DNA of 41,155 nucleotides from Microgenomates group bacterium (GTDB taxonomy: Bacteria > Patescibacteriota > Microgenomatia > UBA10105 > UBA927): assembly GCA_049287205.1 (NCBI GenBank), contig JBAQFJ010000001.1, positions 1 to 41,155 on the forward strand, given 5' to 3'. This document shows positions 3 to 39,811 of the stretch, piece after piece. Position 1 is the first letter of the stretch, and the number at the start of each line of letters is the position of its first letter. A model generated the notes under the pieces. It searched no databases. It was given only the letters and a program-made list of their open reading frames with translations, and was not told the DNA's origin. Made by a program: the position numbers and the translations under genes.

Positions 3-3000
3 ACAACGGTTGCCTGTACTGTTGGCAAAGTGCAGTGCAATCCAACACGACCAAATGAGTTGCAGACCTGTATTAAACGGGAAGGTGCTTCGAATACTTG
101 GATGACAACATCGTGTCCGAATGGATGCAAGAATGCTGCCTGTGTGACAACAACGTCAGCCACGTGTACTGCAAATGAAGATTCCACACTGACTACCCGT
201 GAATGTACTACGCGGGGCAGAACATATAGGACATTAGCTGATGGGAAAATTTGTTGTCTACGGGTTTCAACCAAAACACCAACACCGTCAACCACTACAA
301 CAAGTGGATCTTTAGCTATCGGCGATACCTGTGTGAAAGGATTTTTTGGTTTAGGCGATACGTGTAAAAAATGTCCAAACGGAGAATATTATGTTGCTGG
401 GCGTTCTGGGTCGGGAGGAACGCTCAAATGTGGTTCTGCTTCTACAACAGCTACCACAGCTTTAACAGGAGTTGCAATTAGTCCAAGTCCGTCTGTGGTG
501 GTTGACCAAGCAGCGTATCAGTCATGTACAGCGGCGTGTGTTGCTACGTATAAACTGGAAAAAGATCTTAATGAAAAGACAAGTTGTATGACTGCATGCA
601 ATACACTGCTAGTTGCAGCGGCAGGTGCAGTGGGGGCAACTGGAACATCCGGTACAACAGGTGCTACCGGTACAACAGGTGCTACCGGTGTAACACCTTC
701 CATTACTCCTTATCCTGTTCCAACACCACCAAACTTCACCGGCGGAGTGCTGCAATGTAGTGCGGGAGGTGGAACAAACGCAAAAGCTGGATCATTCACC
801 TTTGATAATGGATCTATATATAAATGTGATGGAACAACAGGACGATGGTTTAATGTGAGCAACATTGGATGGGGACCAGAAGATGTTCCAGAAAGCGAGC
901 GTCCGTCATGGCTTGTTCCAGGGAGTAATTATTGGGTTGCATACACAACATCCGCGGTGACCGCCCCATCTATATATACGACCGAAGCAAAAAATGCATG
1001 TGTTGTGAATGTTGCCGATGGAAAGGTGTCATATAGTGATGGAGATATTGCTATTGGTCCATATCACACAGACGGAGATAAAGGGAACAGATATCGTTGC
1101 GAAGATGGAAAATGGAAAGCATGCGACGGGTGTCTTCTTACCGTTGTTCCTGAATACATGAAGAGTGATGCAGCGTATCAACAGGAGGTTGAAGCAATAA
1201 GTCTGGCCTATCAAAATTATGCAATAGCACTGAGCGCATGCGGTCAAAATCCAACGCAAGCCTGTGTTGATGCGGCGGCAACAGGATTAAATTTATCAAA
1301 CGATGCGCTTTTGGAAGTGCAAAAACAATACAATCAACAGGCGGCAATTCAAAATACCTATTATCCTGCAATGCAGGCATATGCAACGTGTCTTGCGACT
1401 CCAGGAAAAACAGAGGCCACGTGTGCGGATGAACGAAGAGCAGCAAATGTTACGTATGCAGCAACAGGGTTGGGTGGTGGAGTGTATCAACAGGTTTCAG
1501 CAAATTTTGGGACTGTTGTGTATAACACATTTCTCAATGATTACATTGCTATTAATGCACGAATAGACGTATGCGCCGAGGACAACTCCTATGTATTTTC
1601 TGATGGTGCCACATGTACCGATGCCACACAACAGCTGGCAAATCTGAAAAATGATCCGTTATTTGTGTATTTTGACCAAACAACATCAAATTCAACACTG
1701 GATTTGTTGCTAGCAGATGCAGCGAAGAATGAAGGTATTAGCACGGTGTATGCAAAGTATGCTGTTGTTTCCGATGCGTATACTACTCCAGATAGCGAGT
1801 TGGTAGAGCGATGTGAAACGACTGGTGCGGGAGCGGTATACACAACGTCCTATCAAGGTGAACGAATAAAGACCTGTACAGCAGCAGCTGTCCGTCAAAA
1901 TTTGCTGACCACTGCAACACTTTCCGATGGACTGAAAGAGCAAATTGTTTATGGATATAAGCAAAATTTGCTTTCCCAGTATTCTCAGGCGACCGCATAT
2001 GGAGATCTTGCGGCTGTCTCGACCTTATGCGAACAATTTTCCACCAAAGAAATATGCGCAGATTATGCAAAAGCAGTCAATGTGATTTCCTCGAATTTTA
2101 AAATTACATTCTCCACGGAAGAATTGGCGGCAATGGGCAATATAAACAAAACACTCACTGATACAAAAACATATTCATATTTACTGGATCCGTCACAATG
2201 TGATTTATCAACAGAAGCGATTTGTGCAAAAATCGAAACAAATCCAACTGCTGTATTAAAGACATTGCCGGAAAACCTGCAGGATGCATGGCTCAGCCAG
2301 CAAATTGTTACCACATCGGCGCCTGATATACTCGCGCTCTGCAAACAATTACTGAGTGCTAGCAAATGCAAAGATGAAAAAACTGCCATTACTTCATTAA
2401 CAGCAACATTGCCGCAGGATATGCAAACCGGTCTTGTTGATAACAGGACAACCTATCAGCAAACTATTACCACATTTGAATTGGTGACAGGTGGTGATGA
2501 TGAAGCCATGACAACTGCCTGCAAGAAACAATATCCTAACGCGGCAGACCAAGCGATTCACTGCGTAAATCCTGATTCTTATAGACAAGCATTAGTGTTG
2601 ACATTGCCAGAAGCTGCACAAACACAGGCAGCAGCAGTTATCGAAGAAACCACACGGCAGCCGGATACCCTGTATTATCAAGCGTATCAGCAGTATGTAA
2701 AAGACAATGGTGAGACAACCATAGAAGAGTTTAATGAGTTGAATAATAAGGCATTTGATTCCATGAAAGCAAAATGGGATCTGTATGGCTATACAGAACA
2801 GTATGCTGCAGCATACCAAAAAGGAAATTTTGTTCCATTGCAGGCAAAAGAAGATTATAAAAATAATGTTCCCTGGTATAAAAAATTATATGTAGGAACA
2901 CAAACACTGGGTGACACCTTTGTTTCTCGAACATGGGGAGTTGATGAGGAAGTTGCTGCAGAGCGTGCACGAGGAATATACATGGGGCTCGATATAGAGA

Positions 3001-6000
3001 CAAAACAGAGTTATCTTACAAGCATAGCTGAGACTCCTGCATATAAAACTGCATTGCAACAGGATTCGACATTAACACCGGAAACCTATCTCAAGTCACA
3101 GTTGGCAACAGCAATTGGTTATGAGAATGACTATTTAACAGCTGGGATAATCCGAGTGGATAATAAGGATCAGTTTTATGCACAAGTGATGCGGGGAGAA
3201 CTTACGCCAACGGACACAGCAAAAAATTTAACTGCATCGGAAAAGTCGGCATTGGCAGTATTCAATTTTGCCAACGGGGTAACGGCTGTTTTCGGCGGAA
3301 ATACAACTGGAGCTTCTGAGACATTTGTTCGTGACGCAAATCCCGCAATTGAAGAAGCACAAAATGAATGGACAGCAGACATGATGATTCGCGATATTCA
3401 TTATAATAATCCGACATTATATGTGAATCTGAATTTAGGCGATGAAACAACAAGAAAACAAGTAACGGAAAATTATGCAGCTGCGTTATATATAAAAGAT
3501 CATGCAGAACGAGATGATATTCCAGGGGTAGACACATTATTTGCGTCTGATCCACAGTGGGTAACGCGTGCCGCACTTACCGGAGAAGTTGATTTTACAG
3601 CATTGAAAGAATCTGTTGCAGATGTTGTTACCTATAACGTTGCGAAAGATTTAAACAAAGTCATTACAACGATGGATTCAGGGAATATTACAGAAAAAAC
3701 TGACTATAAAGCCGCTGCAGCCCAAGCAGCACAAGTTGTTGCTGATGCATACCTTAACTCTTTTAGTGCGTCCGATCTTGCTGTCATGGACGAGCAACTG
3801 GCGTTAAAAAAGCCGGATATGAAGCCGGAAGAATATGAAGCATATCGAAAAACACAACTGAAAGCATTGATGGATTCAGAAAATAACAAAGATTATCAAT
3901 TTTTATTTTCCGCAGCAGGATGGGATATCCCAACAACAGAAGAAGTGCTCACCGGTCAAAAAGATGTGGCACGTGATATGCGGGTAATCAGTGAGGAAAA
4001 AGCAAAGTATCCGGTTGCTTATTGGCTGAACCGCCAAGAAAACGGATTGTTGGCAAAAGGGCAATTGATTTTAGATGATCCGGAATCGAATACATGGGAT
4101 AAAGCGCGCGCGGTAGTCATGATGAATGCTAAACCTGTATCGTGGGTGCTTGCGGTGGTGCCAGTTGGGAAATTGGTTGCCAGTGGAGCAAAAATAGCAA
4201 CCGTTCCAATGATGATGAATATCGGATCAACCGCACTTGGCGTGACTATGACTGCGGATAGTCTGGCGCAGGCAATGGACGCGTGTACGTTTAAAGATGA
4301 TATGAATACACGCGCGTGTGTTACCTCATCTCTTATGACAGGGTTTGCCGCGTTTTCGACTGTTCCGGGTATGAAGCAGTTACAACTGGCATCCAATGAG
4401 GCGCTAGCAATGCGCGCTGCTGCAAATGTCACGACAAAAGTGGAAACCATGGTTTTACAGGGTGCGTCAGAAGCGGAAATTTCCGTTGCTTTAAAAACTG
4501 CACAGGCAGCAGCGGATAAAGCAGCAGTAAGAGTACTTACTTCGCAGACATCCGTTGTTTCGAAAGTCGTTGGGAATCAAGTGTATAATCGGGCAACATC
4601 ACTGCTTGGAGGCGCTGCGTTTGGATTACAGGCAGTGGACGCATGTGCGGAAGGACCGAATGTAAATTGTGTACTTACTGCAGGTATGGCTGCCGTGTCT
4701 TTTACCCGTGTGTTTGTTAATCCAAACATCGCCTCAGATGTACAAAAAGGCGTCGGGCAAACCATACACAATGCAGACAAGATTATCAATACGGGTTTTG
4801 CAGCCACTGCATGTTCCGAAGCTGCTGAAGGAAAAGTTCCATGGTCGCAGTGTACGAGTGCACTGTTTATGGCAACGAGTGCATTTCGTGAACCGGGTGC
4901 ACCAACAACAAAAACGGAAACAAATTTTGATGTACGTTCGCAGCAATCGAAAGCACTTAGTGAATTTGAACTTCTTCTTAAATCCAAAGCCGGAGAAGCG
5001 GTAACGTATAACGGAACATCTTATACACCGGAAACGTTTACCGAGGCGGTTCGGACAAAACTGCTTACAGAAGCACGGACACAAGTCACGGTAACAAATC
5101 TGGAAGTAACAAAATTAAATGCGCAAGTTGAGCAGGCGATGAAAAAACTTGCAGGAACACCGGAGCAATGGACTCCCGGAACACGAGAGCTCAAGAAAGC
5201 GCAGGAGCTGTGGAGTGAAATTTCTACAAAAACGAATGCAACATCAGAACAAATTGATGCAGCAGCGCACGCGTTGCTTTCCGCAAAACAAACAGCAACG
5301 TACGAAGCGATGCTATTGAAGCCAAAAAGAACATTTGCCACAGTGGTCAATAAACTTTTTAGAAGAAGTCAGCCAGAACTGGACGCACTTGCCACTGCAC
5401 AAAAAGAATATAAGGAACTGCTTAAAGGAAAAGATCTTAATCCCAATGATCCGGTATATAAGGAAAAAATGCAGGTACTTCTTACAGCGGACACTGCAGT
5501 AACGCGGAAATATGTGTATAACGAGGTGCAACGCACATATGCGACTGAATTGGACGCCAAGAAAAAAGTATTAGCTGATTTAGAACAAAAATATACAGAG
5601 GCGCTTGCGCAAAAGGAATCCAGTCTTGTTGTTGATGATGCGTTGTTAAATTCCGTTGCAGAGCTAGAAACAAACGTATTGGCGGCACGATCTGACGTTG
5701 TTGTGCAACAGGCACGGTTGGAATCTGCAGGCGGATTTTGGAATCGTGTTGGGATTGCTTTAGGTCGGGAAGCTGCGGTGCAAAGCCGTGTGGAAAAGAC
5801 AATTGCAGAATTATATCCAACAGCTGCAAACAAACTCGCAGCTGTTCAACCCACAAAAACAACGCTTGCCGATGCATATTCCAAACTTCTTGACCGCAAC
5901 CCGCTCGTGAAAGAATGGCGCCAGAAGCAATTATCCGTTATTGAAGCAAGGAAAAATGCAGGCGGTGCTGAGACAGTACGACAACGTGTTATTGACCGTG

Positions 6001-27000: not shown

Positions 27001-30000
27001 CCTACATGCCACATCGGGTGATATGGAATCAGATAACAAACAGTAGAAAACAAGCTGTTCCTTTACAACAAATGGTGGTAAGTCCATTCTCTGATTCAGG
27101 AAAAATGATTCCGATGCAGACAGTGGAACCTGCGAATATTCAATCTATGAATCCGGAAAATGCAGATTGGAATGCATTAACTGTTGATGAAAAGGCGATT
27201 CTTCGTTTGGCGGATTTTGAAATAGTGCGAGATGAATATATTGCTATGAAATCGTCCTATTTCGGTTCACTTCCGAAGACATTCAGTGAAAAACTGACAG
27301 GTACGATTGCAAAAATTTGGAGTGCCGGAACCAATTTCCGTCGTATGCCACAGGATTTGTTTGTTCGACTTCGTGTGTTCCTGAATCCAAAAATCGCAAC
27401 AACTTTGAAAGCAAAAACCGTGAGCGCCTCTGTATTTTCCCGCGATACGCTGATGACTAATCCGACATTTACAGGAATTTTGGATCAGGCAAAGGCGGAA
27501 GGAAATACCAAAGCGTTGCAAACCATAAAGAATCTGCTTGATCGCGAAGTGATGAAAGAAGTAAATGCAGAGAATGTGTTGATGCTTGAAGGTATATCGA
27601 CAGAGGAACTTGCCGTGATTGTTTCAAAACTCGGGTATAATCCATGGGTTTTTTGGTCAGATAACAGGGGAGAGACCTCACGTATTGCTATTGATAATGC
27701 GTTAGTTGATGGAAAACATCCATTTGAGGCAAACGGCGCGTTGAATGGTCTTTCAGAGGAGCAAAAACAAAAAGAACTGTCCTACTTCCAGAAATTATTT
27801 CCGAACATTCCAAGGTGGCTTACTTGGCTTCCAATAGCAAAATGGAGCGTCTCTCGAGATCATAGCGTCGTCCACACCGTGACAGTTGATGGTAAAACGT
27901 ATCATTTTTTGACGATGCACGTTGATCCGCCAAACGCAGTAACGTTTGTGAAAGATGTGTGGAATAAAATTACCGGAAAAACCGCAAAAGATCACCGGAA
28001 TATGTTTGCGTACCATGCAATGGAAGCAGGAACCGGAAAATCATATGTCGGAACAGGTCTTTATGCTCTCGGTCAGAAAATGTTTATCCAACTCCTTGGC
28101 AGCGCAAAAGATAAGGGAATTATCGGTGGTTTAACTGTCACAGGGGAAGAGCACTATAAAACAACAGACACCGTTATTGGTGATGATGCCATCACGTGGA
28201 AGATTAGCGATATGGTGAAAGCGGAAACTGAGGCAAAAATAGTATCTCCGTCATTGACAACGGTTCTTATGAATCAGGACATTGACGCCTCTGTTGATAC
28301 AAGTGGAAAACCAACAATTATACCTGCAAATAATACGACGATTGTAGGGGAACACCATATTAGAACTTCGGTGGATGAGCAGAGTGAAGCTGATTTCATT
28401 AAGAAATTGGAAGTGTCTCAGGTGGTCGTTGTTGAATTTGATTCGCTTGGCGACAATGTATATTCCCAACAAAGCACCGAAAAGCGATTTATGCAGCAGG
28501 CGCAAGAACATGCACTTGCGCAAAACAAACCGCTCCTTGTTCTTGACAGCAGCATTGAGGATAGATATAAATTGTGGCTTGATGCTGGTGTCGATGTTTC
28601 CCGTGAAGATTTTGCCATTCTGACAGGATTTCGCCTGCTTTCACAGGATTTTGCCAACAATATCTCCGGCAGTCAGTCAAAGCAAACATTGGTTGATCTC
28701 TATACCGGATATTTTTCAGGGCAATCTGCGTATGCTAGCAGGTTGGCAGATGCGGTGTACCAGATGTATTTTGGACTTATTGAGTCAGATTCAGTTACGA
28801 AAAAGAATGCTTTGCAGGTTGATTTTGTGACGCTCGATGCGGCAGCGAGGGAACGGTATTACCAAAAAAGCATTGCAGCCATTGAAAAAAATGTATCAGA
28901 CAAAAACATATTGGTTGTTGTTGGTGCAAGCCACGCCATCCCAATTGCACGAACGATAACGGATGGATCGTTGACAAAAGCCGATCCTTTATTATCTACC
29001 AACATAAATACAACATTGTCGACGCTGAAACAGCAGATAAATTTTGAACAAATTATTTCGGGTATGCCTGCACTTCAGCAAAGTGAAGCTGCTTTGTCGG
29101 GGCAAAGTTTGACAATAGTGAGTATTCCTGCTGATTTAGCCTCATTTACCATGACGCGTGATGGATTTACCCTGAGTGGGAAGGGAACGATATCTGTCGA
29201 AGGTTCGACGTTTCCTGTCACTCTGGAGGGAGCATTTCCGATTTTTGCAAACATGACACCGTATCTGAAACAAGACGGATTTCCTGTTCGCGTGACAGTA
29301 AATGATGCAAATGGGAAACGGGTTGGATCTATTCACATGGAGTTTAATAAAGGGGACGAAAGTGTAGGGGATATAGGACGCTTACTGCAAGCAGACATCA
29401 ATAACAGTGTTTTTTTGACAGTGAACGTCGATGTAAATCCAGAATATCGGCAACAGGGAATAGCCACGGCGTTATTGGACTACACGGAACTATTGGCGAG
29501 TCAAGTGTTTTCTGAGGCCAAGAATTATCCTCAGCTGTATCCAACTAATCTTCGCATGTTTCATCTGCTTTTTGATGCGAATTCGACTGATGGGTTTACC
29601 ACAAAATATGCAGAATCTCACGGGTATAAGACAATCACACAGGGGCTACAATATGTGAAAGAGTTGACAGCAGATGTGAAATCATCTGTAGAGCAGGCAG
29701 AAAGGCTCAATGTTGGTTTGTTTGCTGAGGGGACAAAATATTTGGTGAAAGCGGGGGTTGATGCAGTACAAAATGGGGTTAAAAAGTTTTTGTATGGAAA
29801 CACAATTCAAAATTTTAATCAGTGGAAAGAACTAACATTTTCCAGTCAAGCATATTTGCTTCAACAAGCGGTACTTCGGGATCACAGAGATATTCTGCAG
29901 CGTATAGATATGGCCTCAAATGATGCACAAGAAGCAGTTAAAAATTTAGTTGCAGATACGTATGATCGGACAAAAACAGAAACAAGTTTACCGCTCGAAA

Positions 30001-32003
30001 TTCTGAGCCCGCGGGTGGTTGCAGAGTTACTTTATGTACCAGTAGAAGTTTTACATCCGGAAACAAAACAATCTGGAATTGGAACAGAGATACAGGGAAT
30101 GGCTCCGATGTCGATGTATACCGACGGGGTCACGCAGCTGAAAAAAATGTCTTTGATTCCCCGTTCGGAACGGACGTTTTTTGAGAGAATGCAGTATGCG
30201 TTTATTGATGTGGCACTTGGAACAACGAAAGCTTTGTATGGAAAAACATTGTTAAATTCTACAAATCAGATGACAACTTCAGTAGTAAGCACATATGTAC
30301 AAGCGTACTATTATGCGGCGCGAAATAAGATAAAAGATGTTGCCACATTCTTAAAAAGTCCTGCATCTGAGCAGGGGAGTTTGACGTTGCCAAATGTATC
30401 AGAAAATGCTTCTGTGGATACAGTGCAGCCTTCAATAGACAGTGAAATAAAAAATAATGAAGCATCTACGGTGCGTCCATTCACTGAATCCGAAGTTGAA
30501 TCGATATCAAATGGATATGTTGCGTACAAACAATTTCTATCGAAGTTGCCATCATGGGTTAAGTTAGATAAAGGTCAAAAACAAACGCTTTTATCGTTGT
30601 TTTCAGGATTTAGACCAGAAGTTCATCTTTCGTCACCAGGGACAACAATAAGGGGACGTACTGGTATGGAAACTCTTTACTATGATACGTTGGTTCAACG
30701 AATTCTTATTCAACAATTGGCGAAAGAATCAGGATTTCTTTCTGTTGATCATAAAACTGTTAGCACAAATGGCGTATCTGTTATAAATCTTGCGGCGGCT
30801 TTTACCGTAATGAATGAAAATTCAGATTTATTTCCAAAAGAAATTATTAACAATCGGGATGCTGCTATGGAGTGGCTACGTACACATGCGGCTGATTGGA
30901 TGGCAGATTACCGAAGTAACAAAATTGTTACAAAGCGATACGGCTTACTCAGTGGTTTTTCAAGAAACAGTGTTGATTTAGACAATGTATATGGAGGAGC
31001 AGTAGCAAAAATAAATAAGATTGATACGAATATCATTCGTCAATTTGACACTTCCAAATATCCCGATGAACAAGAAAAAGCAAAACGAATGAAGCTCATC
31101 GAATCCATCTCTTCATTAGATGAGGTGGAGCGAAACGCGGTTATGAATGTATATACGGAGCGAGCTTTAGTATTAGATATAATATTTTTTAGTTTTTCGC
31201 AATCAGATGCATTGCAAGTAAAACAATGGGAGAATTTGATTCAATCTCAACCACAATACGAAGCTTTGGTAACGGAAGTTCCAGATATACGTAATGAAAT
31301 TAAAACGAAAGTGCAGCAAATTTTCTCCTCTTTGAAAAATCCTGCGTTGGAGCGGGGAGGGTTGATGTTGCCGTTGTTGGCAAAAGGAATATCGACTGAC
31401 GGGGTGGCACAAGATGTTACACGGTGGTCGGCAGGTATTGGACTCGGGGCAATGCTGACAAAGGCGTCACTTGCGATAACCGATCTTTCCTTTGTGGAAG
31501 GCGCATATACGCAGTTTCTTGACAAACTTGCTTCCATTATCGGTCCTTCTGCATACATCAATCCGAATTATTTCCGTTGGAATTTTATTGATTATGCGTT
31601 TGGCCTTGTTTCTGCGGGTTTGGCATATGTAGGATTTAACGCCGTTTTAGCCAAGCTGTTGCCAGCGGTGAAACACAAACGCGCAATTGCGCTTGTCGGA
31701 ACAGTTTTTTTGACAACGTTGTTTTCTTATTTAGGAGAACAGTATGGAAGTATTACACCCTTTAAGGGGTCACCTATTGATTTAAATGATTGGATGAATG
31801 AGTTTGGCGGAATGAGTACGTTTTTTCTTGCGGAATATGTGTTTTCTCTGTTAAAAAAACGCGGTATTTCACTGACAGGAAATCTGATCCCTCCGAAAAT
31901 AAAAGCAGTATTGCAGGGAGCGGCTTTTTTTGGAGGTATTGGGGTGATCGGATATGTCTCAGGCGTCTCTTTGGTGTATTTCTTTAAGCTGTTAGGATTG
32001 TAA
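3..32003 (+). CDS. Giant multidomain membrane-anchored protein (at least 10,657 aa; probably 5'-partial in this window)
   Basis: One frame (the phase of nt 30) has no stop for 31,974 nt and ends at TAA 32001-32003. The same frame is open back to nt 3: codons TTVACTVGK precede the GTG at 30 and continue the Cys-rich theme. The true start is therefore likely upstream of the window. At least nine independent catalytic or structural motif sets lie in this single frame across about 25 kb. The longest antisense ORF inside it is only 239 aa. Confidence 0.9.
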   Translation, partial: TTVACTVGKVQCNPTRPNELQTCIKREGASNTWMTTSCPNGCKNAACVTTTSATCTANEDSTLTTRECTTRGRTYRTLADGKICCLRVSTKTPTPSTTTTSGSLAIGDTCVKGFFGLGDTCKKCPNGEYYVAGRSGSGGTLKCGSASTTATTALTGVAISPSPSVVVDQAAYQSCTAACVATYKLEKDLNEKTSCMTACNTLLVAAAGAVGATGTSGTTGATGTTGATGVTPSITPYPVPTPPNFTGGVLQCSAGGGTNAKAGSFTFDNGSIYKCDGTTGRWFNVSNIGWGPEDVPESERPSWLVPGSNYWVAYTTSAVTAPSIYTTEAKNACVVNVADGKVSYSDGDIAIGPYHTDGDKGNRYRCEDGKWKACDGCLLTVVPEYMKSDAAYQQEVEAISLAYQNYAIALSACGQNPTQACVDAAATGLNLSNDALLEVQKQYNQQAAIQNTYYPAMQAYATCLATPGKTEATCADERRAANVTYAATGLGGGVYQQVSANFGTVVYNTFLNDYIAINARIDVCAEDNSYVFSDGATCTDATQQLANLKNDPLFVYFDQTTSNSTLDLLLADAAKNEGISTVYAKYAVVSDAYTTPDSELVERCETTGAGAVYTTSYQGERIKTCTAAAVRQNLLTTATLSDGLKEQIVYGYKQNLLSQYSQATAYGDLAAVSTLCEQFSTKEICADYAKAVNVISSNFKITFSTEELAAMGNINKTLTDTKTYSYLLDPSQCDLSTEAICAKIETNPTAVLKTLPENLQDAWLSQQIVTTSAPDILALCKQLLSASKCKDEKTAITSLTATLPQDMQTGLVDNRTTYQQTITTFELVTGGDDEAMTTACKKQYPNAADQAIHCVNPDSYRQALVLTLPEAAQTQAAAVIEETTRQPDTLYYQAYQQYVKDNGETTIEEFNELNNKAFDSMKAKWDLYGYTEQYAAAYQKGNFVPLQAKEDYKNNVPWYKKLYVGTQTLGDTFVSRTWGVDEEVAAERARGIYMGLDIETKQSYLTSIAETPAYKTALQQDSTLTPETYLKSQLATAIGYENDYLTAGIIRVDNKDQFYAQVMRGELTPTDTAKNLTASEKSALAVFNFANGVTAVFGGNTTGASETFVRDANPAIEEAQNEWTADMMIRDIHYNNPTLYVNLNLGDETTRKQVTENYAAALYIKDHAERDDIPGVDTLFASDPQWVTRAALTGEVDFTALKESVADVVTYNVAKDLNKVITTMDSGNITEKTDYKAAAAQAAQVVADAYLNSFSASDLAVMDEQLALKKPDMKPEEYEAYRKTQLKALMDSENNKDYQFLFSAAGWDIPTTEEVLTGQKDVARDMRVISEEKAKYPVAYWLNRQENGLLAKGQLILDDPESNTWDKARAVVMMNAKPVSWVLAVVPVGKLVASGAKIATVPMMMNIGSTALGVTMTADSLAQAMDACTFKDDMNTRACVTSSLMTGFAAFSTVPGMKQLQLASNEALAMRAAANVTTKVETMVLQGASEAEISVALKTAQAAADKAAVRVLTSQTSVVSKVVGNQVYNRATSLLGGAAFGLQAVDACAEGPNVNCVLTAGMAAVSFTRVFVNPNIASDVQKGVGQTIHNADKIINTGFAATACSEAAEGKVPWSQCTSALFMATSAFREPGAPTTKTETNFDVRSQQSKALSEFELLLKSKAGEAVTYNGTSYTPETFTEAVRTKLLTEARTQVTVTNLEVTKLNAQVEQAMKKLAGTPEQWTPGTRELKKAQELWSEISTKTNATSEQIDAAAHALLSAKQTATYEAMLLKPKRTFATVVNKLFRRSQPELDALATAQKEYKELLKGKDLNPNDPVYKEKMQVLLTADTAVTRKYVYNEVQRTYATELDAKKKVLADLEQKYTEALAQKESSLVVDDALLNSVAELETNVLAARSDVVVQQARLESAGGFWNRVGIALGREAAVQSRVEKTIAELYPTAANKLAAVQPTKTTLADAYSKLLDRNPLVKEWRQKQLSVIEARKNAGGAETVRQRVIDRVASALLGKYSGESVTVSVRDIDVYRQTQVKEGTIPEVVKEQRISQAELKQALDTNNTVKMTKEQSILSRTEPDVVKATAIEQKAQAVREAVAVYESALLDRPKKLAAVTEAMKTYEKALAESNITSSKTTSSVKSLTTALSEKAMAYTKAVTEYKQTATPENLTKVQTADIAFKKAQIDVFVAEKQAFVYEAAKGLNPVERAKILTKTELMPELPASWSEPQKLTVELRVRAMEMKINEVWKATGKLKQTGVFGWKAAQISDAVKLLSGNRSLAIQMTGGGKTFTNALYMDLSYELTGRPGTYIAKDAQSIQVYNQLKPLFGEDIYYFRLGKDIKGNPLDIVQQEAQMRSAKFILAEPSDIAFLLDTMKSPGLTTQQQIASFEAYKKIYTANRTIDEFPEFLNSKNEWVMSFTSDQAVIGSTRQTALMEQLQKVFVEKNILTEGLVGSQERVQLTDLIEKTIVVSDGTVVKQSHFTEKGVKSMIDSMLETKLSDGNVLFDGLTGTREQKIATVYEVFDAIATRDPAKLAAIEADPVLTKIYTDATFLGDAMNKSATILVSEIGSQTFATGIGSNGNLQANVKDGDIITALSRKMLQSWVWDTPLTIEALKTVSVNGQTIKTNIFDLYAWDIAFGREVGGFSGVTATPDAIRNIAKMAGYTVNEAEILVVNAANKKRIFGEPDAATGNLTGGRVSEKNFVSLGEQGDLVQAVKKYAAMMTEELVKQNGVVINKSDKHILAVNARASKEEIMALMASEKNLGTKRNYVVATEDGNIYEVKFTDGKAQFVEMTKKYSNVNISAKATGLERIMSTGISDHTTVIILEGQSIGGDFPGSKEISFQSIIDASRATTEIVYQTHGRGMRTNETLLSDGMITFGSKEIVGNSAESMKEFIGKIEINSTVAQKNLMAEAIPAWLNAQANLPMYEAYVELMNAGKPAEAAKISTMLADMQKVQESYDANVFKKGTEFKDSVQQKVNELSAKYNRLLTENADFFNQPDMAALKNRLLADNVEAYTISIKETGGDVAKLQLAGDGLRGAARRISENLSFDEVPKYVAGDTAKGEISAKLADALNGIKGEPITITDPASAALKAAAMQAEQDLAISGGTTGTKVVNTKSSTQTAVDILKTIQGQSTAIQTPQDRALVIQGLSPARANVAAALALYQQESAKITITPIDQTTDKKLSVGVKVEGLAITNANQVVLRVLKTGGRVVTTVGETTFDFADNTSYYVVAPEGYVGNTTVDDITTRAGGVKVTIASSVEQPADSAVIAKALQDLNLAKDEANTIEYGLFEDALQRVTEQVGGTDEFARRTAASALMQYESAVSDVLATMTDAQKQSLSDPIALDTNASILAARTAAVTAIAAYKNDATFDAEQAVTQLAHPIMTTLIALAKAEISTIASDTTTKDTVTFGNAPKAKQTSVVGAFFTGIWNTLNPQGTEWFTAGAQTVQAYWNLTKNAVQQGALAIRQNAATRRVARAEEKLDAAKAVKRITVADRTIGQATQTQVTAENRARTQTAGLLSILPWKNKAALKSVMLEIDGLRKDITNHKAVLTTLAADQNTTIDELPDELIGQDGIDVSLRRGVIALDEKKIGVLQDSLVPLLPKRSTFSLLSVIDRISTWRNLTIEKRQENAQKIYDTAVDKQTALATQQATAESDLTVVQETLTNALAAWSEAARPGFAGGFTALREAIVDPDYSLRKQVDAMVREEKKIDRKIAREKNAGDQEQKHYEAVAQELARLNEKIAPFAAKETAANNSINKAYRRINDLEKKITRMSAATQTTAIETRIAGWQAQIAVQQAEIARMNAENAENHKQYTKISNQKKSFEQELTVALQAASESKDVILTLEEQKSALVEQRENIAISDAPGLFESIKRIAGFMGVGSAYNADVSSWARQLVGYTAGNVSDTAIAAAYKTKHAVLASALETAKKDVVNAQIAYDKATIRQENAKQKLALIQQSLEDYKTAKQDNPTNIALPNVMSKKWLEEIATLQSKVEAIDEQLHGRTMENAADAAEKIEIYQATSLRTIYTDRIAELERNVAEKKTIDMSAVDTSYLAYLEVSMHNAESAVEITTHYTNGMKFLLTHAETVLEKRQTALDALGTFEAPVRDLVMPAAPGFPQVLLSMVAQLNPDIRTMLTEERRQNAVYTVATELLKKGTTEVIQVLTIETSGLAKTITKQATHVLRVNRGSSTQEEEVQSIFTAAKEQASAFVMLFTAFSAEQKKAIVVAVIAKQPIGDSKTKQLLETELRTVAHDGLSDMLFTYWVSSMAEQLLPVVNTAKQTGEIKIIPAGTQSIAPITPIAPIVSLPKPSVITPAGPTTEQKERVDMIIQEYMITVRKEAETTKNLDMLTFIPTVVAAISRDITDEGLPELTLSQIEAVTEQLTLEIQAGIAKQSAVPASPLAQQKATIETEIASVTQALRAATTVVENYTKNKAIVDQIKKEQGQIQGVQKQITAALTAVDVDILAVDDQLQQASAELNRLSVQIANSSITPEAQAKRAQAVAEQLVNTMDAAQIPIIQQWVKTLNASQQYTEASIREVLTNDLQSRFAGIESLAAELLSTTPEFAGDTDGVNNYAAQIAQTLSVQWFINRYTDSKFFTVKTTVDPTTARNSVAIGDVHGDWNALVKILSGQMANENGERIKKSLIDRNGNWIGGPTDQLILTGDFFDRAPDGILSSQTAEKLMKLQQRAGMMSDGKTPKIVMLLGNHDANTVVAYNKMKALLQSGQMTDVKEAADLASVFAPVKPGIAGDDLLYLYNHPEVVDWATRLPAMFVQDGALYMHSDNLSYLSLGRTVDEVNENVGKILQSGQATIIDADGNTLEFDQTKLAKKLTDRGKLYGSNVDKILNQYGVQTIVHGHSQGEASQDPRVTNVDGGLSESYSGQAKNRGRFASQQVQGKQITTVAVSPLTLPVADVAVDPIPLSPSLVSAAATPDIQAQLATYKTQVETLAKEKAQLFQTKIEQRFQLEALEKTLQEITTKLSGIAVSESTYKTAVASQKALKKQLAANKKLLDEATQLIGAQQELRAYVATLRKNKLVKIKDSAVISLASLSDMRDFVSALGGLVAASIEKLVPTTADAIFTIEALVIDALPPAGLINNIVESTTFVQTIQQALLNAADALDTEAQRAVLIKQLQGIEIEDIDTLSIQELQDLVDMLKDDAAQLQQGQEAQIQQKIQEGIDAFKRIAADQAGRKTLLAVPDVNVFAVNAVGQLNVELQKNALPVLSQFQERALALEIVSIVTTVKKEEAVGTEEQSFYTEEGGDLVEKATNRRYPNIEPFREAGKKSPLEAPGPVVSVGTYDPNERPVLFNSNMFNSLLENMRTHSYTYDANGQQVFSKEFGAMLFGREKTDPQSGKTYVEAEYYIPFPESTLVGTAGDLNITPEAWAAVSKIADAMEKHVEPGLIPLGWIHTHPDLGTFLSRQDLFIQGNYFPAKLAVVIDPREQSDATPVVSTFSEFGIGAAQNNTRFKKHQGYYLASQTMLPRALTDDAVQHIAEINTIIEDLSVTPAGTGTSELDQEIAKEKAVIAEKERLYAAIEEEAKDNGVMPKDIRARVLAFTDWYSKEMGIPFSERKQMDLDQQLKEHAQAGVFSWTRTQFTDAITAIRAGGITIEDLPAAPESAAEGFKVLQAYLDYLQTQFIGEQQLTADKIAVSTILEQFNTIFAAKGRFDASFINATKLLFVIPDLVNAIADVQAFSKKLDTEIQRQETEGQSQEAWMQTLQKQLETPGVATILITRNNGVVAQTITTPSSSYFADVQAIFSALSTTDTITVFFTADDGSQFAGTYHLNWFGRVVQVGMNIPSLSSVTDSRPEGIFQPVPAYLTPQQKGEIEVFIDSIENVTNEAVRSRENEQYARAYARFEEQLTAAEKAAARSQEEIDAQVARSAALEAEKLQNAQTKFLPAGPTVQEQISASLLAENTEVAQMLLDQLKNISQGKTIDIVDPISGEVYTVSDYTAPFLTTAMTQSYQAGKDSARVVSMMRPFIVAPQNVQPILRPNTALVRQQLQKELAKKLSAAIQVGMTAYTNEQGIKTVQTIQNAIKTYLETQIPVSATVDETIRNTVIEEQTQKTFTATLASITTIQKTSINTIDDAVLRATTLPELTELTKQLAETSGIVEALQLTTLQELLTIVADDIAEQRIAIETVEQEKRLAEAQEELGAAWEQLISQGEQGDQTTVLEDALGVAQNAVSIIPVAYENLVNEFEFGIIETPAVKAKKAKRTAAVKKVKTTPVVVTTAPTTEQIATAQIVLGAFSPLRDRVNNISNRLPAVSITEMQDIFYDLTAAIQAVDQADMPSEEKQKLFPSFSLIRNEIATIQDRLTTLEREQQTILYEISDADYTLFASSTVSIVHQLDVIELLRQELVSVVPLSISAPVVSIPELTAAEEQPAATISDELETRIRETQKAVIRRIFSEPISTAIEVSLRAQLQDLQVQVPQTSPQYTSLQQTMDLVTQAVHEQTIKSIAKQVASVTEVSQEQANVLLAQLSAIPEGISPTAVADLKVQIQNKLPKTPTAPIVTKSKTPKQLAAEAGQAMKNVQKSVADGANFTITWRAIQSAFTASKTLANSKEYRTMLIDEIVKIQDIKIRTRIIDNLHPLFKVLKINKEWKDFTSNLQKRLSELPAVETKPIAPAVKPVVKITKQQITEANRAVEQMKLAITQGASPQRVYTAIKEVLLVSRLFANNQEYRTLVGDAIQEIQDEHTLQTILSGLHSFFMVQRMVEEGSELIERIQAKLDTIVQTQENEEKEQIAQLTQDTIGLQETNEIIAALEQEITKTQQAIDQNIQKYGDVSVIYQKTVEDLSKTATPLEGIFTLEAVNVTGDFFESSGDTKAKVLQNLQLTKDETVLEPIGSGANRAVYRIPWNGKQAILKIASLKEQAWSDIVEKSVLEQDPAFPKELSKNLLETYAHGSFDVPYKNGSRAVYYEIVESLTPEVDSSSTEVTAFEHESSALRTFLGEMSDVTGAKNWGVRPDGTPVLLDITNFNMSGIDDMLSFLRVRIQDIQKNVQFFQAAKTDPILQILSRIHRIVSDDIKFSGDLAILDASFKTKEDYIGQLISQEIQPLSIDRVNLHLENQLTYKNRPEEFYKSVNDAINKLTRLKSATTLEEQIRIAFTDDIKVTPAGVEQPETVEVKTPVVDTAMETVNKTIVLAQGWIEKIRLGEAAYVENIPKFITRIQEVVAPLPAESEAYGAAQKLIQTLQELKKQQTEKKEQAPEIPIEKKPLVEEIAVVPIIETVLTEEIAPMMTKRLPAVWKTVQSAKQQDIIAGLQQIAKGAIEDEVNQSYVRDMIAGARSKAFVTNRLSAAFEDYLQQTLVQTGLMTGEIPLALRTDLATLVIDQITPFVSTTVTISKPESTTTKSKMTTPVATVNTTVVKQQIADQVREQIDGLLPNLIVERAERNAVEESIQRLQQAGGDVGAAIKKNKEAITNVTLQELLRTHEFTPESVLSLQGAIYQKQSKGALSVSNIAWQLDPEQKTIVTIHHTDGVVDQVSIKSSAMTQKTLLAYMRPLDSAVFTTAAGEKIVITLTRQGGKTIDGNMQTPAVWQQYSSVSSPTMIVSGSTADTPVYRVSAMAIETGDKAVSLVGDVIKTTAKAAGSVLPKKATSLVGDVRAMIPQDVPYVVRKAVGDALTQEFAAQNITTYETAAAFLANGTISQTMQTTFAALQELTANATEWYQAAGMVMTHMSELQWDPKFTVVTRQTTASILAGKIADATRMHALVAGKTSLASQSEIILLTGRILTMYAAGTNGIKLSSKETKAVINALQQPISVYITAVLENQIATSTLFPAEQPALQSAATEEVKQLIEEETVQAPVRELTPSEVKNLLQTAPMIEEIRTDIAWRLSKNAALSSLTTMDALLVANGQVEQLIQASIGEIVQEAYSDAGVTGVFNPQEKNNQVITDVVHQTTQQAMSVLTRLIRGDIAYQGIQPAVEEAVRQSEETTRAYVSWNQVKEFLDKTTHVLQEPNTYFSGESLTYIAQLLYKPHALQTDLQTIAEKPKEITKKLPKMLRTIRAQDIARQASERTKTIVKLTATGLAVLGVYAVTHIPAILGFAGAMRIAMTNPGANITPSSPVTIIEQFTQAPTINPTNTLDLSTSTPTQAPSATLAAPVDTVGQALYEAYLGSASVQDFAYRPLFERVVNERIARAQAEGDAFWIRITGKNASQLTQAEKDAVLQNPVVSIPLLVTDGDLVDPSGGKLETAEEQAVALRSMRNDATFVIYLNTQTGRLDILSSTRQVLMSNGGQYNALLQRDKENPLQGAQIALEEMFGTTMDEPIVADRFFLRYLVDAVFPEGITVSVPQDMVRDSMNANGQYPVVYKAGTYTFHGDELISYISVRHLQKETEYHRQARAAQVLFLMLQKFGSSANSAEIIENMSQTLRFHVQEGGRIIMLNDLTGAKGSDDTFAALATRFQFLQNPKYFSSGAFGEIYDHQLALNANFLNPHLSVLQPVASRTVTYANLLKALGVYINPVGVYVPSGVDLWYMPQPSAQSAGYFASTREIAKDMVSESVDEIQTVLVPVVPTAVPAVVVPEVEPAQEEQAQIPTESAAPAAYQITDRPVRIMLLGDSLISAGTLPTKFSASLGSAGWNVVFVGSQATGRVAHEGHGGFSTSWFVRDLLNTDGDGMWNNLGQREPTLNLKGADTIPDIVVLQMGTNDINNGYPLEKSKANMETIIAYLQQQNPHVQIVINPVPVMNADYYENATPEAIAAYNAMLATLTTSSSTNTSSIVMTDASLENIDLAIDISSDGVHPTQSGDQKIANALQRVVGERLSELTGIDTQAYVPSGKVLQMPVAVERVEIMKMIAVQQWEELQKGMKTRQQDVAVQQVQVKRNEIQGPMKNMMVEIIPYWLQQSWYTNVVMSESFWALMDLTHDIEVILKNDQVNIIKTPKKATESKTRQTNQMLPVEQKVEEVVAPVVKTIEDAENDPCGFSSLFIESVFAQGAGNPCSGSTKIVKQISGLVFKATGRTASDAMKLTAYMPHRVIWNQITNSRKQAVPLQQMVVSPFSDSGKMIPMQTVEPANIQSMNPENADWNALTVDEKAILRLADFEIVRDEYIAMKSSYFGSLPKTFSEKLTGTIAKIWSAGTNFRRMPQDLFVRLRVFLNPKIATTLKAKTVSASVFSRDTLMTNPTFTGILDQAKAEGNTKALQTIKNLLDREVMKEVNAENVLMLEGISTEELAVIVSKLGYNPWVFWSDNRGETSRIAIDNALVDGKHPFEANGALNGLSEEQKQKELSYFQKLFPNIPRWLTWLPIAKWSVSRDHSVVHTVTVDGKTYHFLTMHVDPPNAVTFVKDVWNKITGKTAKDHRNMFAYHAMEAGTGKSYVGTGLYALGQKMFIQLLGSAKDKGIIGGLTVTGEEHYKTTDTVIGDDAITWKISDMVKAETEAKIVSPSLTTVLMNQDIDASVDTSGKPTIIPANNTTIVGEHHIRTSVDEQSEADFIKKLEVSQVVVVEFDSLGDNVYSQQSTEKRFMQQAQEHALAQNKPLLVLDSSIEDRYKLWLDAGVDVSREDFAILTGFRLLSQDFANNISGSQSKQTLVDLYTGYFSGQSAYASRLADAVYQMYFGLIESDSVTKKNALQVDFVTLDAAARERYYQKSIAAIEKNVSDKNILVVVGASHAIPIARTITDGSLTKADPLLSTNINTTLSTLKQQINFEQIISGMPALQQSEAALSGQSLTIVSIPADLASFTMTRDGFTLSGKGTISVEGSTFPVTLEGAFPIFANMTPYLKQDGFPVRVTVNDANGKRVGSIHMEFNKGDESVGDIGRLLQADINNSVFLTVNVDVNPEYRQQGIATALLDYTELLASQVFSEAKNYPQLYPTNLRMFHLLFDANSTDGFTTKYAESHGYKTITQGLQYVKELTADVKSSVEQAERLNVGLFAEGTKYLVKAGVDAVQNGVKKFLYGNTIQNFNQWKELTFSSQAYLLQQAVLRDHRDILQRIDMASNDAQEAVKNLVADTYDRTKTETSLPLEILSPRVVAELLYVPVEVLHPETKQSGIGTEIQGMAPMSMYTDGVTQLKKMSLIPRSERTFFERMQYAFIDVALGTTKALYGKTLLNSTNQMTTSVVSTYVQAYYYAARNKIKDVATFLKSPASEQGSLTLPNVSENASVDTVQPSIDSEIKNNEASTVRPFTESEVESISNGYVAYKQFLSKLPSWVKLDKGQKQTLLSLFSGFRPEVHLSSPGTTIRGRTGMETLYYDTLVQRILIQQLAKESGFLSVDHKTVSTNGVSVINLAAAFTVMNENSDLFPKEIINNRDAAMEWLRTHAADWMADYRSNKIVTKRYGLLSGFSRNSVDLDNVYGGAVAKINKIDTNIIRQFDTSKYPDEQEKAKRMKLIESISSLDEVERNAVMNVYTERALVLDIIFFSFSQSDALQVKQWENLIQSQPQYEALVTEVPDIRNEIKTKVQQIFSSLKNPALERGGLMLPLLAKGISTDGVAQDVTRWSAGIGLGAMLTKASLAITDLSFVEGAYTQFLDKLASIIGPSAYINPNYFRWNFIDYAFGLVSAGLAYVGFNAVLAKLLPAVKHKRAIALVGTVFLTTLFSYLGEQYGSITPFKGSPIDLNDWMNEFGGMSTFFLAEYVFSLLKKRGISLTGNLIPPKIKAVLQGAAFFGGIGVIGYVSGVSLVYFFKLLGL
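30..1140 (+). other. Cys-rich, Thr/Gly/Pro-rich N-terminal module of the giant protein (probably extracytoplasmic or adhesive)
   Basis: By my count there are 23 Cys in the first ~370 residues, with CxxC and CxnC spacing (CPNGCKNAAC; CVKGFFGLGDTCKKCPNGEYY; SCTAACV...SCMTAC). There are PT-rich linkers (STKTPTPSTTTTS; TPYPVPTPP). The motif Y[KR]C[DE](D)G..W occurs twice (GSIYKCDGTTGRWF; GNRYRCEDGKWKAC). I recognise no specific family. Confidence 0.5.
633..695 (+). repeat. Short collagen-like Gly-X-Thr/Ser run (7 triplets) containing an exact 2x18-bp tandem duplication (651-668 and 669-686)
   Basis: The translation is GAT GTS GTT GAT GTT GAT GVT. The unit ggtacaacaggtgctacc occurs twice back to back at 651-686 and is followed by a partial third ggt. 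Confidence 0.85.
4130..4890 (+). other. Cluster of weakly hydrophobic Gly/Ala/Cys-containing helices (candidate membrane-interacting region)
   Basis: The segments are PVSWVLAVVPVGKLVASGAKIATVPMMMNIGSTALGVTMTA, ACVTSSLMTGFAAFSTVPGM, ATSLLGGAAFGLQAVDACAEGPNVNCVLTAGMAAVSFTRVFV, IINTGFAATACSEAA and CTSALFMATSAF. They are hydrophobic but are not textbook TM helices. Confidence 0.35.
6780..8600 (+). other. SecA-like (SecA DEAD-type) two-lobed P-loop ATPase domain
   Basis: SLAIQMTGGGKTFTNALYMDLSYELTGRPGTYIAKDAQSI...LKPLFGEDI parallels E. coli SecA [39 protein letters not shown]...NRPLFEFLG. The Walker A motif TGGGKT is at 6831-6848. TIDEFPEFL (7181-) sits where SecA has its DEVD box. VIILEGQSIGGDF resembles the motif V region TNMAGRGTDI. 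YQTHGRGMRT (8568-8588) resembles the motif VI arginine finger. Confidence 0.65.
13840..14660 (+). other. Calcineurin-like metallophosphoesterase, bacterial PPP (PrpA/ApaH-like) type
   Basis: All canonical motifs occur in order: GDVHG (13857-13871), GDFFDRA (14001-), LLGNHD (about 14125), and VHGHS (about 14580). Confidence 0.85.
15925..16400 (+). other. JAB/MPN (JAMM) metalloprotease domain
   Basis: An upstream Glu lies in EFGAMLFGRE (about 16032-16061). The complete JAMM signature H-x-H-x7-S-xx-D is present in GWIHTHPDLGTFLSRQD (about 16243-16290). It is followed by LAVVIDP. Confidence 0.85.
19604..20248 (+). repeat. Two diverged tandem ~100-aa helical repeats (protein level) just upstream of the kinase-like domain, with a probable third copy at about 21771-21985
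   Basis: Repeat A contains ...ANSKEYRTMLIDEIVKIQD...IIDNLHPLFKV.... Repeat B contains ...ANNQEYRTLVGDAIQEIQD...ILSGLHSFFMV.... The third copy contains ...VNQSYVRDMIAGARSKAFVTNRLSAAFEDYL.... The similarity is visible by eye in the protein. It is not an exact DNA repeat. Confidence 0.6.
20560..21010 (+). other. Protein-kinase-like (PKL fold) domain, atypical
   Basis: There is a Gly-rich loop LEPIGSGANRAVYRI (20587-20610), followed by a beta3-type Lys in QAILKI (20637-20651). YYEIVESL is hinge-like. SDVTGAKNWGVRPDGTPVLLDITNF (20915-20987) resembles the catalytic D...N loop plus the metal-binding Asp. The spacing is not canonical for eukaryote-like kinases. Confidence 0.55.
24141..24236 (+). other. 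Internal transmembrane segment (one long helix or a hairpin)
   Basis: KLTATGLAVLGVYAVTHIPAILGFAGAMRIAM is preceded by a basic stretch (KKLPKMLRTIRAQDIARQASERTK) and followed by a Pro/Thr/Ser linker. Confidence 0.7.
24590..25150 (+). other. LytR-CpsA-Psr (LCP)-like domain (glycopolymer-to-cell-wall phosphotransferase family), divergent
   Basis: IPLLVTDGD...RSMRNDATFVIYLNTQTGRLDILSSTRQV matches the LCP core pattern (LLlGsD...RsDtimlvs.n.....l.SipRD). FLRYLVDAVFPEGITVSVPQDM and YKAGTYTFHGDELISYISVRH...YHRQARAAQVLFLMLQK match the later LCP blocks. A TM anchor immediately upstream is the usual LCP arrangement. Confidence 0.55.
25735..26375 (+). other. SGNH/GDSL hydrolase domain
   Basis: Block I is IMLLGDSLISAG (GDSL at 25757-25768). 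Block II is HEGHGGFST. Block III is LQMGTNDINNG. Block V is SSDGVHPTQSGD (26304-26315). A Val/Pro-rich linker (VPVVPTAVPAVVVPEVEPA) precedes the domain. Confidence 0.85.
28330..28960 (+). other. ChaN/EreA/TIKI-superfamily-like domain
   Basis: TIVGEHHIRTS (28347-28358) resembles the ChaN GExH motif. VVVVEFDS supplies the conserved Glu. AAARERYYQKSIAAI...NILVVVGASHAIPIA (28923-28937) resembles the R...GngH C-terminal block. Confidence 0.45.
29280..29640 (+). other. GNAT-family N-acetyltransferase domain
   Basis: The motif A pattern V..V.PeyRgqGIgtaLl appears in LTVNVDVNPEYRQQGIATALLDYTELLA (about 29421-29480). There is a C-terminal FTTKYAESHGYKT, which is like the fYek.GF block. Confidence 0.7.
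31585..32000 (+). other. Four C-terminal transmembrane helices (membrane anchor of the giant protein)
   Basis: The helices are FIDYAFGLVSAGLAYVGFNAVLAKLL, AIALVGTVFLTTLFSYLG, FGGMSTFFLAEYVFSLL and LQGAAFFGGIGVIGYVSGVSLVYFF. They are separated by short charged loops (KHKR, KKRG). Confidence 0.75.
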
Positions 32004-32016
32004 AAGACGGACGCGT

Positions 32017-34077: not shown

Positions 34078-34079
34078 TA

Positions 34080-35012: not shown

Positions 35013-35013
35013 A

Positions 35014-39810: not shown

Positions 39811-39811
39811 A

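Follow-up and report, generated by a model that had tools for sequence, protein, structure and literature searches.

Does a reading frame of 32 kb without any stop codon represent one gene, and what could a protein of more than 10,600 amino acids (aa) do for the bacterium that encodes it? The question is raised by a 41,155-nt stretch of contig JBAQFJ010000001.1 (assembly GCA_049287205.1; hereafter the window), of which the + strand was stop-free from nt 3 to nt 32000. This open reading frame (the giant ORF, encoding the giant protein) comprised 10,666 sense codons, terminated with a TAA at 32001-32003 and was open at its 5' end at the window edge. Nucleotides 3-32003 form a single unbroken gene of at least 10,666 codons, coding uniformly along its length and free of repeats, and we infer from its sequence that its product is made and kept as one polypeptide.

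A continuous 32-kb coding frame

A first, sequence-only reading of the window had described an uninterrupted 32-kb frame open at the window edge, as was found here (10,666 codons, nt 3-32000). Its length of 10,657 codons holds when counting begins at GTG (nt 30), the first start-like codon (30..32003 in the ORF listing, 10,657 aa), but not for the full open frame; amino-acid positions in the giant protein are given here as counted from nt 3. About 678 stops were expected in the giant frame from base composition (log10 P of no stop about -304), in agreement with the claim that the frame is beyond chance, and the remaining five frames contained 4 to 40 stops per 1.5 kb over the giant ORF. The G+C content at the three codon positions (GC1, GC2 and GC3) and the purine periodicity were uniform over the entire giant ORF. 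A codon-usage scan, which the same reading had proposed, compared each 3-kb block with the pooled neighbouring genes of the - strand and displayed a match in every block (r of 0.54 to 0.65 in frame, 0.06 to 0.34 out of frame). Because stops were absent and both codon-position G+C content and codon usage were steady throughout, the whole 32 kb is coding in one frame.

An assembly or consensus artefact, in which a chimeric join or a collapsed consensus would hide a real locus made of several genes, appeared extremely improbable. It could lean on a second assembly that confirmed the last 1.7 kb of the giant ORF only (the independent Logan contig SRR28062503_55160, 100% identical to window positions 30303-36339), on the low coverage and fragmentation of two related contigs (L003 and L004), and on the absence of an exact 50-mer of the window start from the contigs of GTDB genomes, of JGI metagenomes and from IMG/VR. 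However, the chance of such a stop-free frame was about 1e-304, composition and codon usage were uniform, and errors break frames and do not create them. No internal repeats were found in the giant protein by self-BLAST, and the DNA of the window contained short chance repeats only, nothing longer that could mislead an assembler; repeat-driven misassembly is therefore unlikely. The first ~2,900 aa were also colinear with an independently assembled ORF of 7,844 codons and with L003.

This second large ORF encoded P0004, a 7,844-aa protein on a 701.7-kb contig (701,700 nt), identical in the NCBI and Logan assemblies. Its presence in two assemblies is independent evidence that the family encodes ORFs of several thousand codons. 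Identity to the giant protein was 25-28% in the core, where three blocks aligned in the same order:

Cys-rich block: giant protein aa 214-493, P0004 aa 216-489
Hydrophobic Ala/Gly-rich segment with Cys pairs: giant protein aa 1362-1736, P0004 aa 638-986
ATPase module: giant protein aa 2225-2879, P0004 aa 1505-2131

The giant protein carried ~720 extra aa relative to P0004 between the first two core blocks, and no similarity between the two proteins was detectable past aa ~2,900. The N-terminus of P0004 consisted of a Met and a strongly hydrophobic transmembrane (TM) helix (aa ~47-65), followed by the Cys-rich region, while the window showed 213 Cys-rich residues ahead of the homologous block and no such helix. 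Because the P0004 helix precedes the Cys-rich block and none is visible here, the start and signal anchor of the giant protein are placed upstream of the window. This supports the sequence-only reading, which had also noted that the Cys-rich character continues up to nt 3 (28 Cys were counted in the first 500 aa). Probably only a short N-terminal piece is missing, in the range of tens of residues, as the P0004 anchor lies ~150-215 aa before the homologous block.

Domains, cysteine pattern and predicted topology

The giant protein was scanned in 1000-aa and 3000-aa pieces, and Pfam domains were called above their gathering scores. Four domains in the one frame passed (Metallophos, JAB, LytR_cpsA_psr and Lipase_GDSL_2), with intact catalytic motifs in Metallophos, JAB and Lipase_GDSL_2; together with the coding statistics, they substantiate the earlier claim of a real gene with enzyme motifs in the same phase. 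TM helices were called with crude hydropathy scales. The features along the chain were as follows:

3..2582, + strand (aa 1-860): Cys-rich, Thr/Gly/Ala-rich N-terminal region with 40 Cys, locally paired from aa 524; predicted outside the cytoplasm
4086..5210, + strand (aa 1362-1736): conserved hydrophobic segment rich in Ala and Gly, containing three Cys pairs as well as weak TM candidates (1398-1416, 1554-1572); homologous counterparts in P0004 (638-986) and locus L003
6675..8642, + strand (aa 2225-2880): family-specific P-loop ATPase-like module with Walker A MTGGGKTF and further motifs
10950..12842, + strand (aa 3650-4280): helix-rich, coiled-coil-like module, common to a 2,564-aa protein of locus L001
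13848..14591, + strand (aa 4616-4863): calcineurin-like/PPP-type metallophosphoesterase (PF00149, E 3.4e-11, 44.4 bits vs a cut-off of 21.5)
16023..16310, + strand (aa 5341-5436): JAB/MPN+ (JAMM) metalloprotease-like domain (PF01398)
24144..24224, + strand (aa 8048-8074): strong TM helix candidate by hydropathy (best-scoring stretch 8053-8071), with a Pro/Thr/Ser linker after it
24693..25142, + strand (aa 8231-8380): putative LytR-CpsA-Psr (LCP) glycopolymer transferase (PF03816, E 1.4e-10, 42-44 bits vs a cut-off of 24.6)
25746..26354, + strand (aa 8582-8784): SGNH/GDSL hydrolase (PF13472, E 1.3e-17, 65.3 bits vs a cut-off of 32.9)
27165..28220, + strand (aa 9055-9406): conserved module, 52% identical to aa 734-1074 of protein P0001
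29313..29498, + strand (aa 9771-9832): GNAT-like acetyltransferase motif, sub-threshold (PF13508, 21 bits vs a cut-off of 27)
31581..32000, + strand (aa 10527-10666): C-terminal bundle of 3-4 hydrophobic helices, the chain terminating within the last one

The metallophosphoesterase displayed the PPP/ApaH-type triad in order (GDVHG at 4619, GDFFDR at 4667 and GNHD at 4709), each motif occurring once in the giant protein. The JAB match, at aa ~5400-5436, had a borderline score (23.5 bits in the 1000-aa piece and 22.0 in the 3000-aa piece, vs a cut-off of 22.5) and the Prok-JAB match weaker; the JAMM motif HxHx7Sx2D was intact (HTHPDLGTFLSRQD at aa 5416) and the region gave weak matches to AMSH/Rpn11 structures in a PDB sequence search. 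In the same type of search the LCP region matched TagT/TagV/BrpA structures and the SGNH region matched acetyl esterases, with SGNH blocks I, III and V intact (GDSL at 8586, GTND at 8674, DGVHP at 8767). Although the LCP region stayed below the cut-off of the NCBIfam model (30.8 vs 62.3), its Pfam score and the TM helix ~160 aa upstream of it support the assignment as a probable LCP glycopolymer transferase domain. A kinase-like module around aa ~6860 (GSGANRAVY...ILKIA) is at most a lead and is not counted among the parts, with no Pfam match at E<=1 and only a hand-picked 43-aa match to P0004 (E 0.007).

Cysteines were distributed very unevenly. The giant protein contained 48 Cys, 46 of them within aa 5-1617 and the last two forming a pair at 8951/8970. 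From aa 524 onwards they were found in close pairs (524/538, 604/625, 676/685, 733/741, 780/789, 840/854, 1428/1439, 1548/1556 and 1604/1617), and two long runs were Cys-free (7,333 residues, aa 1618-8950, and 1,696 residues, aa 8971-10666), while neighbouring proteins contained 1.66% Cys. In P0004, Cys were likewise confined to the first ~1,000 aa and one late pair, and the proteins of locus L001 also avoided Cys. This pairing fits disulfides in segments outside the cytoplasm.

In the topology favoured here, aa 1 to ~1617 would be outside, aa ~1618-8047 inside (with the ATPase, phosphatase and JAMM modules) and aa 8075 to ~10526 outside again (with the LCP and SGNH domains), the chain ending in the C-terminal membrane bundle, for which hydropathy gave TM candidates at 10532-10550, 10560-10578 and 10640-10658. 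The Cys pairs of the giant protein fell only in segments that this topology puts outside. Stand-alone LCP enzymes such as TagT consist of a TM helix, a linker and then the extracytoplasmic LCP domain; the LCP domain of the giant protein is placed outside because its order of TM helix, linker and LCP mirrors theirs.

The same pattern may be read differently. Cys exclusion is a bias of exported proteins in Gram-positive-type bacteria, and its extent over more than 9,000 residues, with paired Cys only, fits export of a protein whose role is mainly structural, as a surface adhesin or fibrous coat. Most of such a chain would be helical and outside the cell, where it would tether the bacterium to its host, and the enzyme domains would be accessories. 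Long helix-rich, coiled-coil-like stretches and the apparent membrane anchoring of both ends agree with such a protein, and an adhesive role was proposed for the large proteins of Vampirococcus (PMC8080830) and for the giant ORFs of Omnitrophota (PMC10066038). However, no adhesion domain (FN3, PKD, integrin, dockerin or discoidin) was detected by Pfam anywhere in the giant protein, which also lacks repeats, unlike typical adhesins. The Walker A/B module, the PPP phosphatase and the JAMM domain, moreover, normally require the nucleotide, metal and substrate conditions of the cytoplasm. A mainly structural role was considered distinctly unlikely.

Relatives of the giant protein and the case for one polypeptide

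The motifs of the ATPase-like module were identified by eye and consisted of Walker A (MTGGGKTF, aa 2276), a Walker B-like IDEFPE after a hydrophobic strand (aa 2394), GVTATPD and HGRGMR (aa 2856). When 1.84 billion representatives were searched exhaustively with HMMER, six relatives of the module were retrieved (P0002 to P0007), while a word-index homology search found no homologue with aa 2150-2950, nor with aa 1-1700. T(G/S)GGKT, (I/M)DE, G(V/M)T(A/G)TP and (H/M)GRG(M/Q)R were kept across the alignment, and the module is therefore real and family-specific. Two of the relatives, P0002 and P0007, were fragments (MEA3355696.1 and MEA3355339.1) from Patescibacteria group bacterium MAG070 (JAYEMX01), with 32-35% identity; they are the only named members of the family. 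These fragments, the 0.7-Mb contig of P0004 and the polytopic glycan-assembly neighbours of the giant ORF make a Patescibacteria bacterium the probable source of the window. A search of GTDB, JGI and IMG/VR with conserved peptide patterns yielded only the already known MAG070 fragment. A 71-aa piece with 53% identity to aa 2289-2358 in the ATPase module was also observed on a JGI contig (L006 nt 5-220; 3300045377, Ga0490019_006346); it stopped at the start of a 5-kb contig on which unrelated genes followed (among them one for a pyruvate:ferredoxin oxidoreductase-like thiamine pyrophosphate enzyme), so that a gene remnant or a chimeric contig is possible.

The contigs L003 and L004 (ENA ERZ2470813 and ERZ1300416; coverage ~0.3) carried matches to aa 1395-1627, 2171-2362 and 2546-3083 in the same order. 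On both, the related giant gene was split into dozens of small ORFs, which looks like the result of sequencing-error frameshifts and not like true fragmentation. Past aa ~3,100, nothing was common to the family members, these two included. Judging from these alignments, the family looks like a conserved N-terminal core of ~3,000 aa followed by a variable C-terminal cargo.

In P0004, the cargo included, near the C-terminus (aa ~7102-7605), a genuine SecA_DEAD domain with P-loop_SecA (E 1.7e-25), without the rest of SecA. No mutual similarity was detectable between this domain and the ATPase module of the same protein (1505-2131), and the set of Metallophos, JAB, LCP and SGNH domains was absent by Pfam from the 5,244 aa of P0004 that were scanned. 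The SecA_DEAD domain of P0004 would, on domain content, put the family among the SecA-bearing giant proteins of West-Roberts et al.

For the C-terminal part of the giant protein (aa 8801-10666, 1,866 aa), a word-index search of 5.8 billion proteins returned a single homologue, P0001, an FHA-domain protein of 1,142 aa that is encoded on an ENA contig of 229.8 kb (L001, ERZ25039462 contig_44541) and shared a module of 352 aa. Directly upstream of its gene, a 2,564-aa gene carried the module of aa 3650-4280. These L001 genes belonged to a same-strand run (nt 1-23429) of large, nearly Cys-free orphan proteins of 1,427, 565, 2,564, 1,142, 697 and 746+ aa, two of them with FHA domains. Given the outcome of the searches, the giant protein appears to be nearly an orphan within a very small family, of which P0004 is the other full-length member.

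Two modules of the giant protein thus had counterparts on L001 in matching order, each in a gene of its own, which indicates that they can exist as independent polypeptides and would fit a polyprotein or a fusion. A polyprotein or multi-product locus would be translated wholly or from internal starts, its product being cut into independent proteins, for instance by its own JAMM domain. The separate, adjacent L001 genes for aa 3650-4280 and ~9053-9411 (2,564 aa and 1,142 aa) point in this direction, as do the intact JAMM motif and the post-translational processing that has been proposed for giant proteins in the literature. However, known JAMM enzymes are isopeptidases and not polyprotein-processing proteases, P0004 stays a single 7,844-aa ORF in two assemblies, and neither cleavage sites nor internal translation signals were identified. 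No Shine-Dalgarno-like motif was found before the plausible starts of the neighbouring genes (35529, 35012, 34077 and 40054); the organism may initiate translation without Shine-Dalgarno sequences. Processing into several products was considered unlikely overall.

The combination of a conserved core and a variable cargo also recalls mobile elements. The polyvalent proteins of phages and conjugative elements, reportedly described by Iyer, Burroughs, Aravind and colleagues in 2017, are said to fuse many enzymatic modules. This class carries DNA-modification modules (methylase, SNF2, MuF). The giant protein resembles these proteins by its fusion of unrelated enzymatic modules in a very large polypeptide with variable cargo, and differs from them by its TM anchors, by the lack of any detected methylase, SNF2 or MuF module and by its context. 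If the giant protein were a polyvalent or effector/toxin protein that a phage, plasmid or conjugative element delivers into another cell, this would account for the mosaic of unrelated enzyme domains behind the ~3,000-aa core and for modules common to unrelated architectures such as P0001, and the "cytoplasmic" enzymes of the Cys-free segment might in principle work in a host cell. However, the matches in PHROGs were weak and confined to phosphoesterase and lipase families of a generic kind, the 50,697 phage and 72,556 plasmid records that were searched contained no tblastn match to aa 1-3000 or 8801-10666, and no relatives were present in IMG/VR. The neighbours were envelope genes of chromosomal type with the same codon usage, and no integrase, tRNA or repeat boundary was found in the window, in which searches for tRNA, rRNA, ribosomal protein genes and Rfam families were also negative. 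With neither phage, plasmid or IMG/VR relatives nor mobile-element genes in the window, a mobile-element origin was rejected as very improbable.

Proposed function and comparison with known giant proteins

Giant proteins of ultrasmall symbionts are membrane-associated and domain-poor; domains of the SecA_DEAD, acetyl-transfer, phosphatase and protease kinds are often found in them (10.1101/2023.11.21.568195; PMC10066038). From its predicted domains and topology, the giant protein is interpreted, with slightly better than even confidence, as a membrane-spanning, modular cell-envelope and host-interface protein. Cell-wall glycopolymers could be attached or de-acylated by its outward parts (LCP and SGNH), whether on the surface of the bacterium itself or where it touches a host cell. 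The inner P-loop, PPP phosphatase and JAMM modules may drive or regulate this envelope chemistry, or the insertion of the giant protein itself.

The flanking polytopic genes for glycan assembly fit a role in surface glycans or the envelope. Two of them were assigned to families:

32017..34077, - strand: polytopic Wzy_C (O-antigen ligase/polymerase-like) protein, 686 aa, convergent with the giant ORF and 13 nt from its stop
37975..39822, - strand: polytopic membrane protein, 615 aa, whose C-terminal part carries an NPCBM glycan-binding domain by Pfam

The 13-nt gap between the giant ORF and the Wzy_C gene (window 32001-32019) offered no space for an intergenic terminator hairpin. Two genes away from the giant ORF, a 310-aa protein (34080-35012, - strand) displayed a signal-peptide-like N-terminus, 20 Cys and D-x-D-rich stretches, without any Pfam family; this secreted-type Cys-rich protein was rejected as kin of the Cys-rich region of the giant protein, to which it showed no similarity. 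The longest ORFs of a 794-aa and of the 615-aa membrane protein overlapped by 56 nt (37975-38030), the 794-aa gene probably starting at a downstream Met. A polytopic membrane protein of at least 367 aa (40054-41154, + strand), without Pfam family, ran off the window end.

Several observations weigh against a membrane-spanning host-interface protein. The main internal counter-argument is the full exclusion of Cys over ~6,400 aa that are supposedly cytoplasmic, which argues against a cytoplasmic location of the ATPase, phosphatase and JAMM modules. Hydropathy gave weak TM candidates at aa 1370-1574, and the side of the membrane assigned to aa 1618-8047 rests on such scales. About 85% of the giant chain had no recognisable domain, much of this part being rich in helix-forming residues with weak SMC-like and "helix-rich" matches, and AlphaFold models were too poor to use (predicted local distance difference test, pLDDT, of 33.9 for the ATPase module alone and 38.1 for the aligned module shared with P0001). 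SecA was not detected in the ATPase-like module, either by Pfam (SecA_DEAD at E<=1) or by phmmer and a family profile against PDB sequences. Three single-comparison tests with SecA gave E of 0.002-0.008 and always aligned Walker A and the stretch that follows DE (the start of PPXD) with the same positions of SecA; they consisted of BLASTP against an approximate sequence of E. coli SecA, hhalign (4.9% probability) and hmmsearch, and are suggestive only of a resemblance of the module to SecA/SF2. Finally, an independent assembly confirmed the last 1.7 kb of the giant ORF only.

In the size classes of West-Roberts et al. 2023, "large" refers to genes above 30,000 bp encoding at least 10,000 aa, and "giant" to proteins of at least 30,000 aa (10.1101/2023.11.21.568195). 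The product of the giant ORF, with 10,666 aa visible and the 5' end open, belongs to the "large" and not to the "giant" class. The sequence-only reading had stated that such sizes are rare and known mainly from Omnitrophota and some CPR (Candidate Phyla Radiation). The first part agrees with the literature (10.1101/2023.11.21.568195; PMC10066038), in which Velamenicoccus archaeovorus, a member of the Omnitrophota, encodes a protein of 39,678 aa; as to the second part, the CPR proteins found were of only 1,392-4,163 aa (PMC8080830), a range well below the present protein, and CPR are not among the phyla given for proteins of at least 10 kaa (10.1101/2023.11.21.568195).

Like the Omnitrophota giant proteins (Archaeovorin and Dockerin types), the giant protein exceeds 10,000 aa, comes from one ORF of a probable ultrasmall symbiont, contains few recognisable domains in a strongly divergent sequence, and mixes acetyl-handling, phosphatase, protease and secretion-ATPase-like modules. 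For the TM regions or membrane anchor that characterise the Omnitrophota type, the hydropathy scans gave strong candidates. Most Omnitrophota-type giant proteins bear a divergent SecA_DEAD helicase domain (10.1101/2023.11.21.568195), and this hallmark was present in P0004. The giant protein probably comes from another phylum; in Pfam scans of its whole length, dockerin, TSP3, discoidin, C39 and glycoside-hydrolase domains were not detected, nor was SecA_DEAD, and it differs from the Omnitrophota giants by its LCP and SGNH domains and its Cys-paired N-terminal region.

Closer in phylogeny, the predators and epibionts of the Patescibacteria also possess large surface proteins, such as those of Vampirococcus lugosii (1,392-4,163 aa, predicted in the membrane, with a proposed host-interface role; PMC8080830) and of Strigamonas-type Absconditicoccaceae (>1,500 aa; PMC13059738). 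The giant protein probably belongs to the same phylum and shares with them a predicted membrane localisation and a proposed host interface, but it is at least 2.5 times longer than the longest of them and carries enzyme domains instead of their WD40, PKD, FN3, integrin and saposin domains. Its TM helix, linker and LCP domain are arranged as in stand-alone LCP enzymes (TagT/TagU/TagV, Cps2A, BrpA) and its intact blocks I/III/V are those of SGNH acetyl esterases. Unlike these stand-alone proteins of 300-400 aa, both domains are embedded at aa ~8,050-8,800 of a 10,666-aa chain. The giant protein is thus an instance of a known phenomenon, that of giant, membrane-anchored, domain-poor proteins in ultrasmall symbionts. 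What sets it apart is a phylum that is probably another one, a tiny family not described before, other enzymes and a striking cysteine signature.

A bolder and decidedly less probable version would see in the giant protein one chain of ~10,700 aa that crosses the membrane several times and couples a P-loop motor, the PPP phosphatase and the JAMM domain to extracellular LCP/SGNH chemistry at the contact with the host. In its radical variant, the Cys-free middle of 7,300 aa, with these enzymes, would itself be exported and delivered into the host.

That ultrasmall symbionts carry giant genes is well recognised, but the function of these genes is a blank so far, and nearly all documented cases are from the Omnitrophota. 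If the genome is that of a Patescibacteria of ~0.7-1 Mb, the giant gene would represent ~3-4% of it, which implies strong selection. If true, the present reading would extend the class of proteins above 10,000 aa to CPR, in which the largest proteins found described were of ~4,000 aa (in a limited literature, an earlier report being possible). Unlike most giant ORFs, this one contains several domains with intact motifs and a readable order of TM helix, LCP and SGNH, which offer LCP ligase, SGNH esterase, PPP phosphatase, JAMM and Walker-type ATPase activities as separately clonable handles for function. The absolute exclusion of Cys with strict pairing is a simple signature that might aid predictions of topology and export for giant proteins at large. 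Either variant of the coupled chain, if true, would mean a CPR-specific class of giant host-interface machines, built from a conserved N-terminal core of ~3,000 aa and an exchangeable enzymatic cargo.

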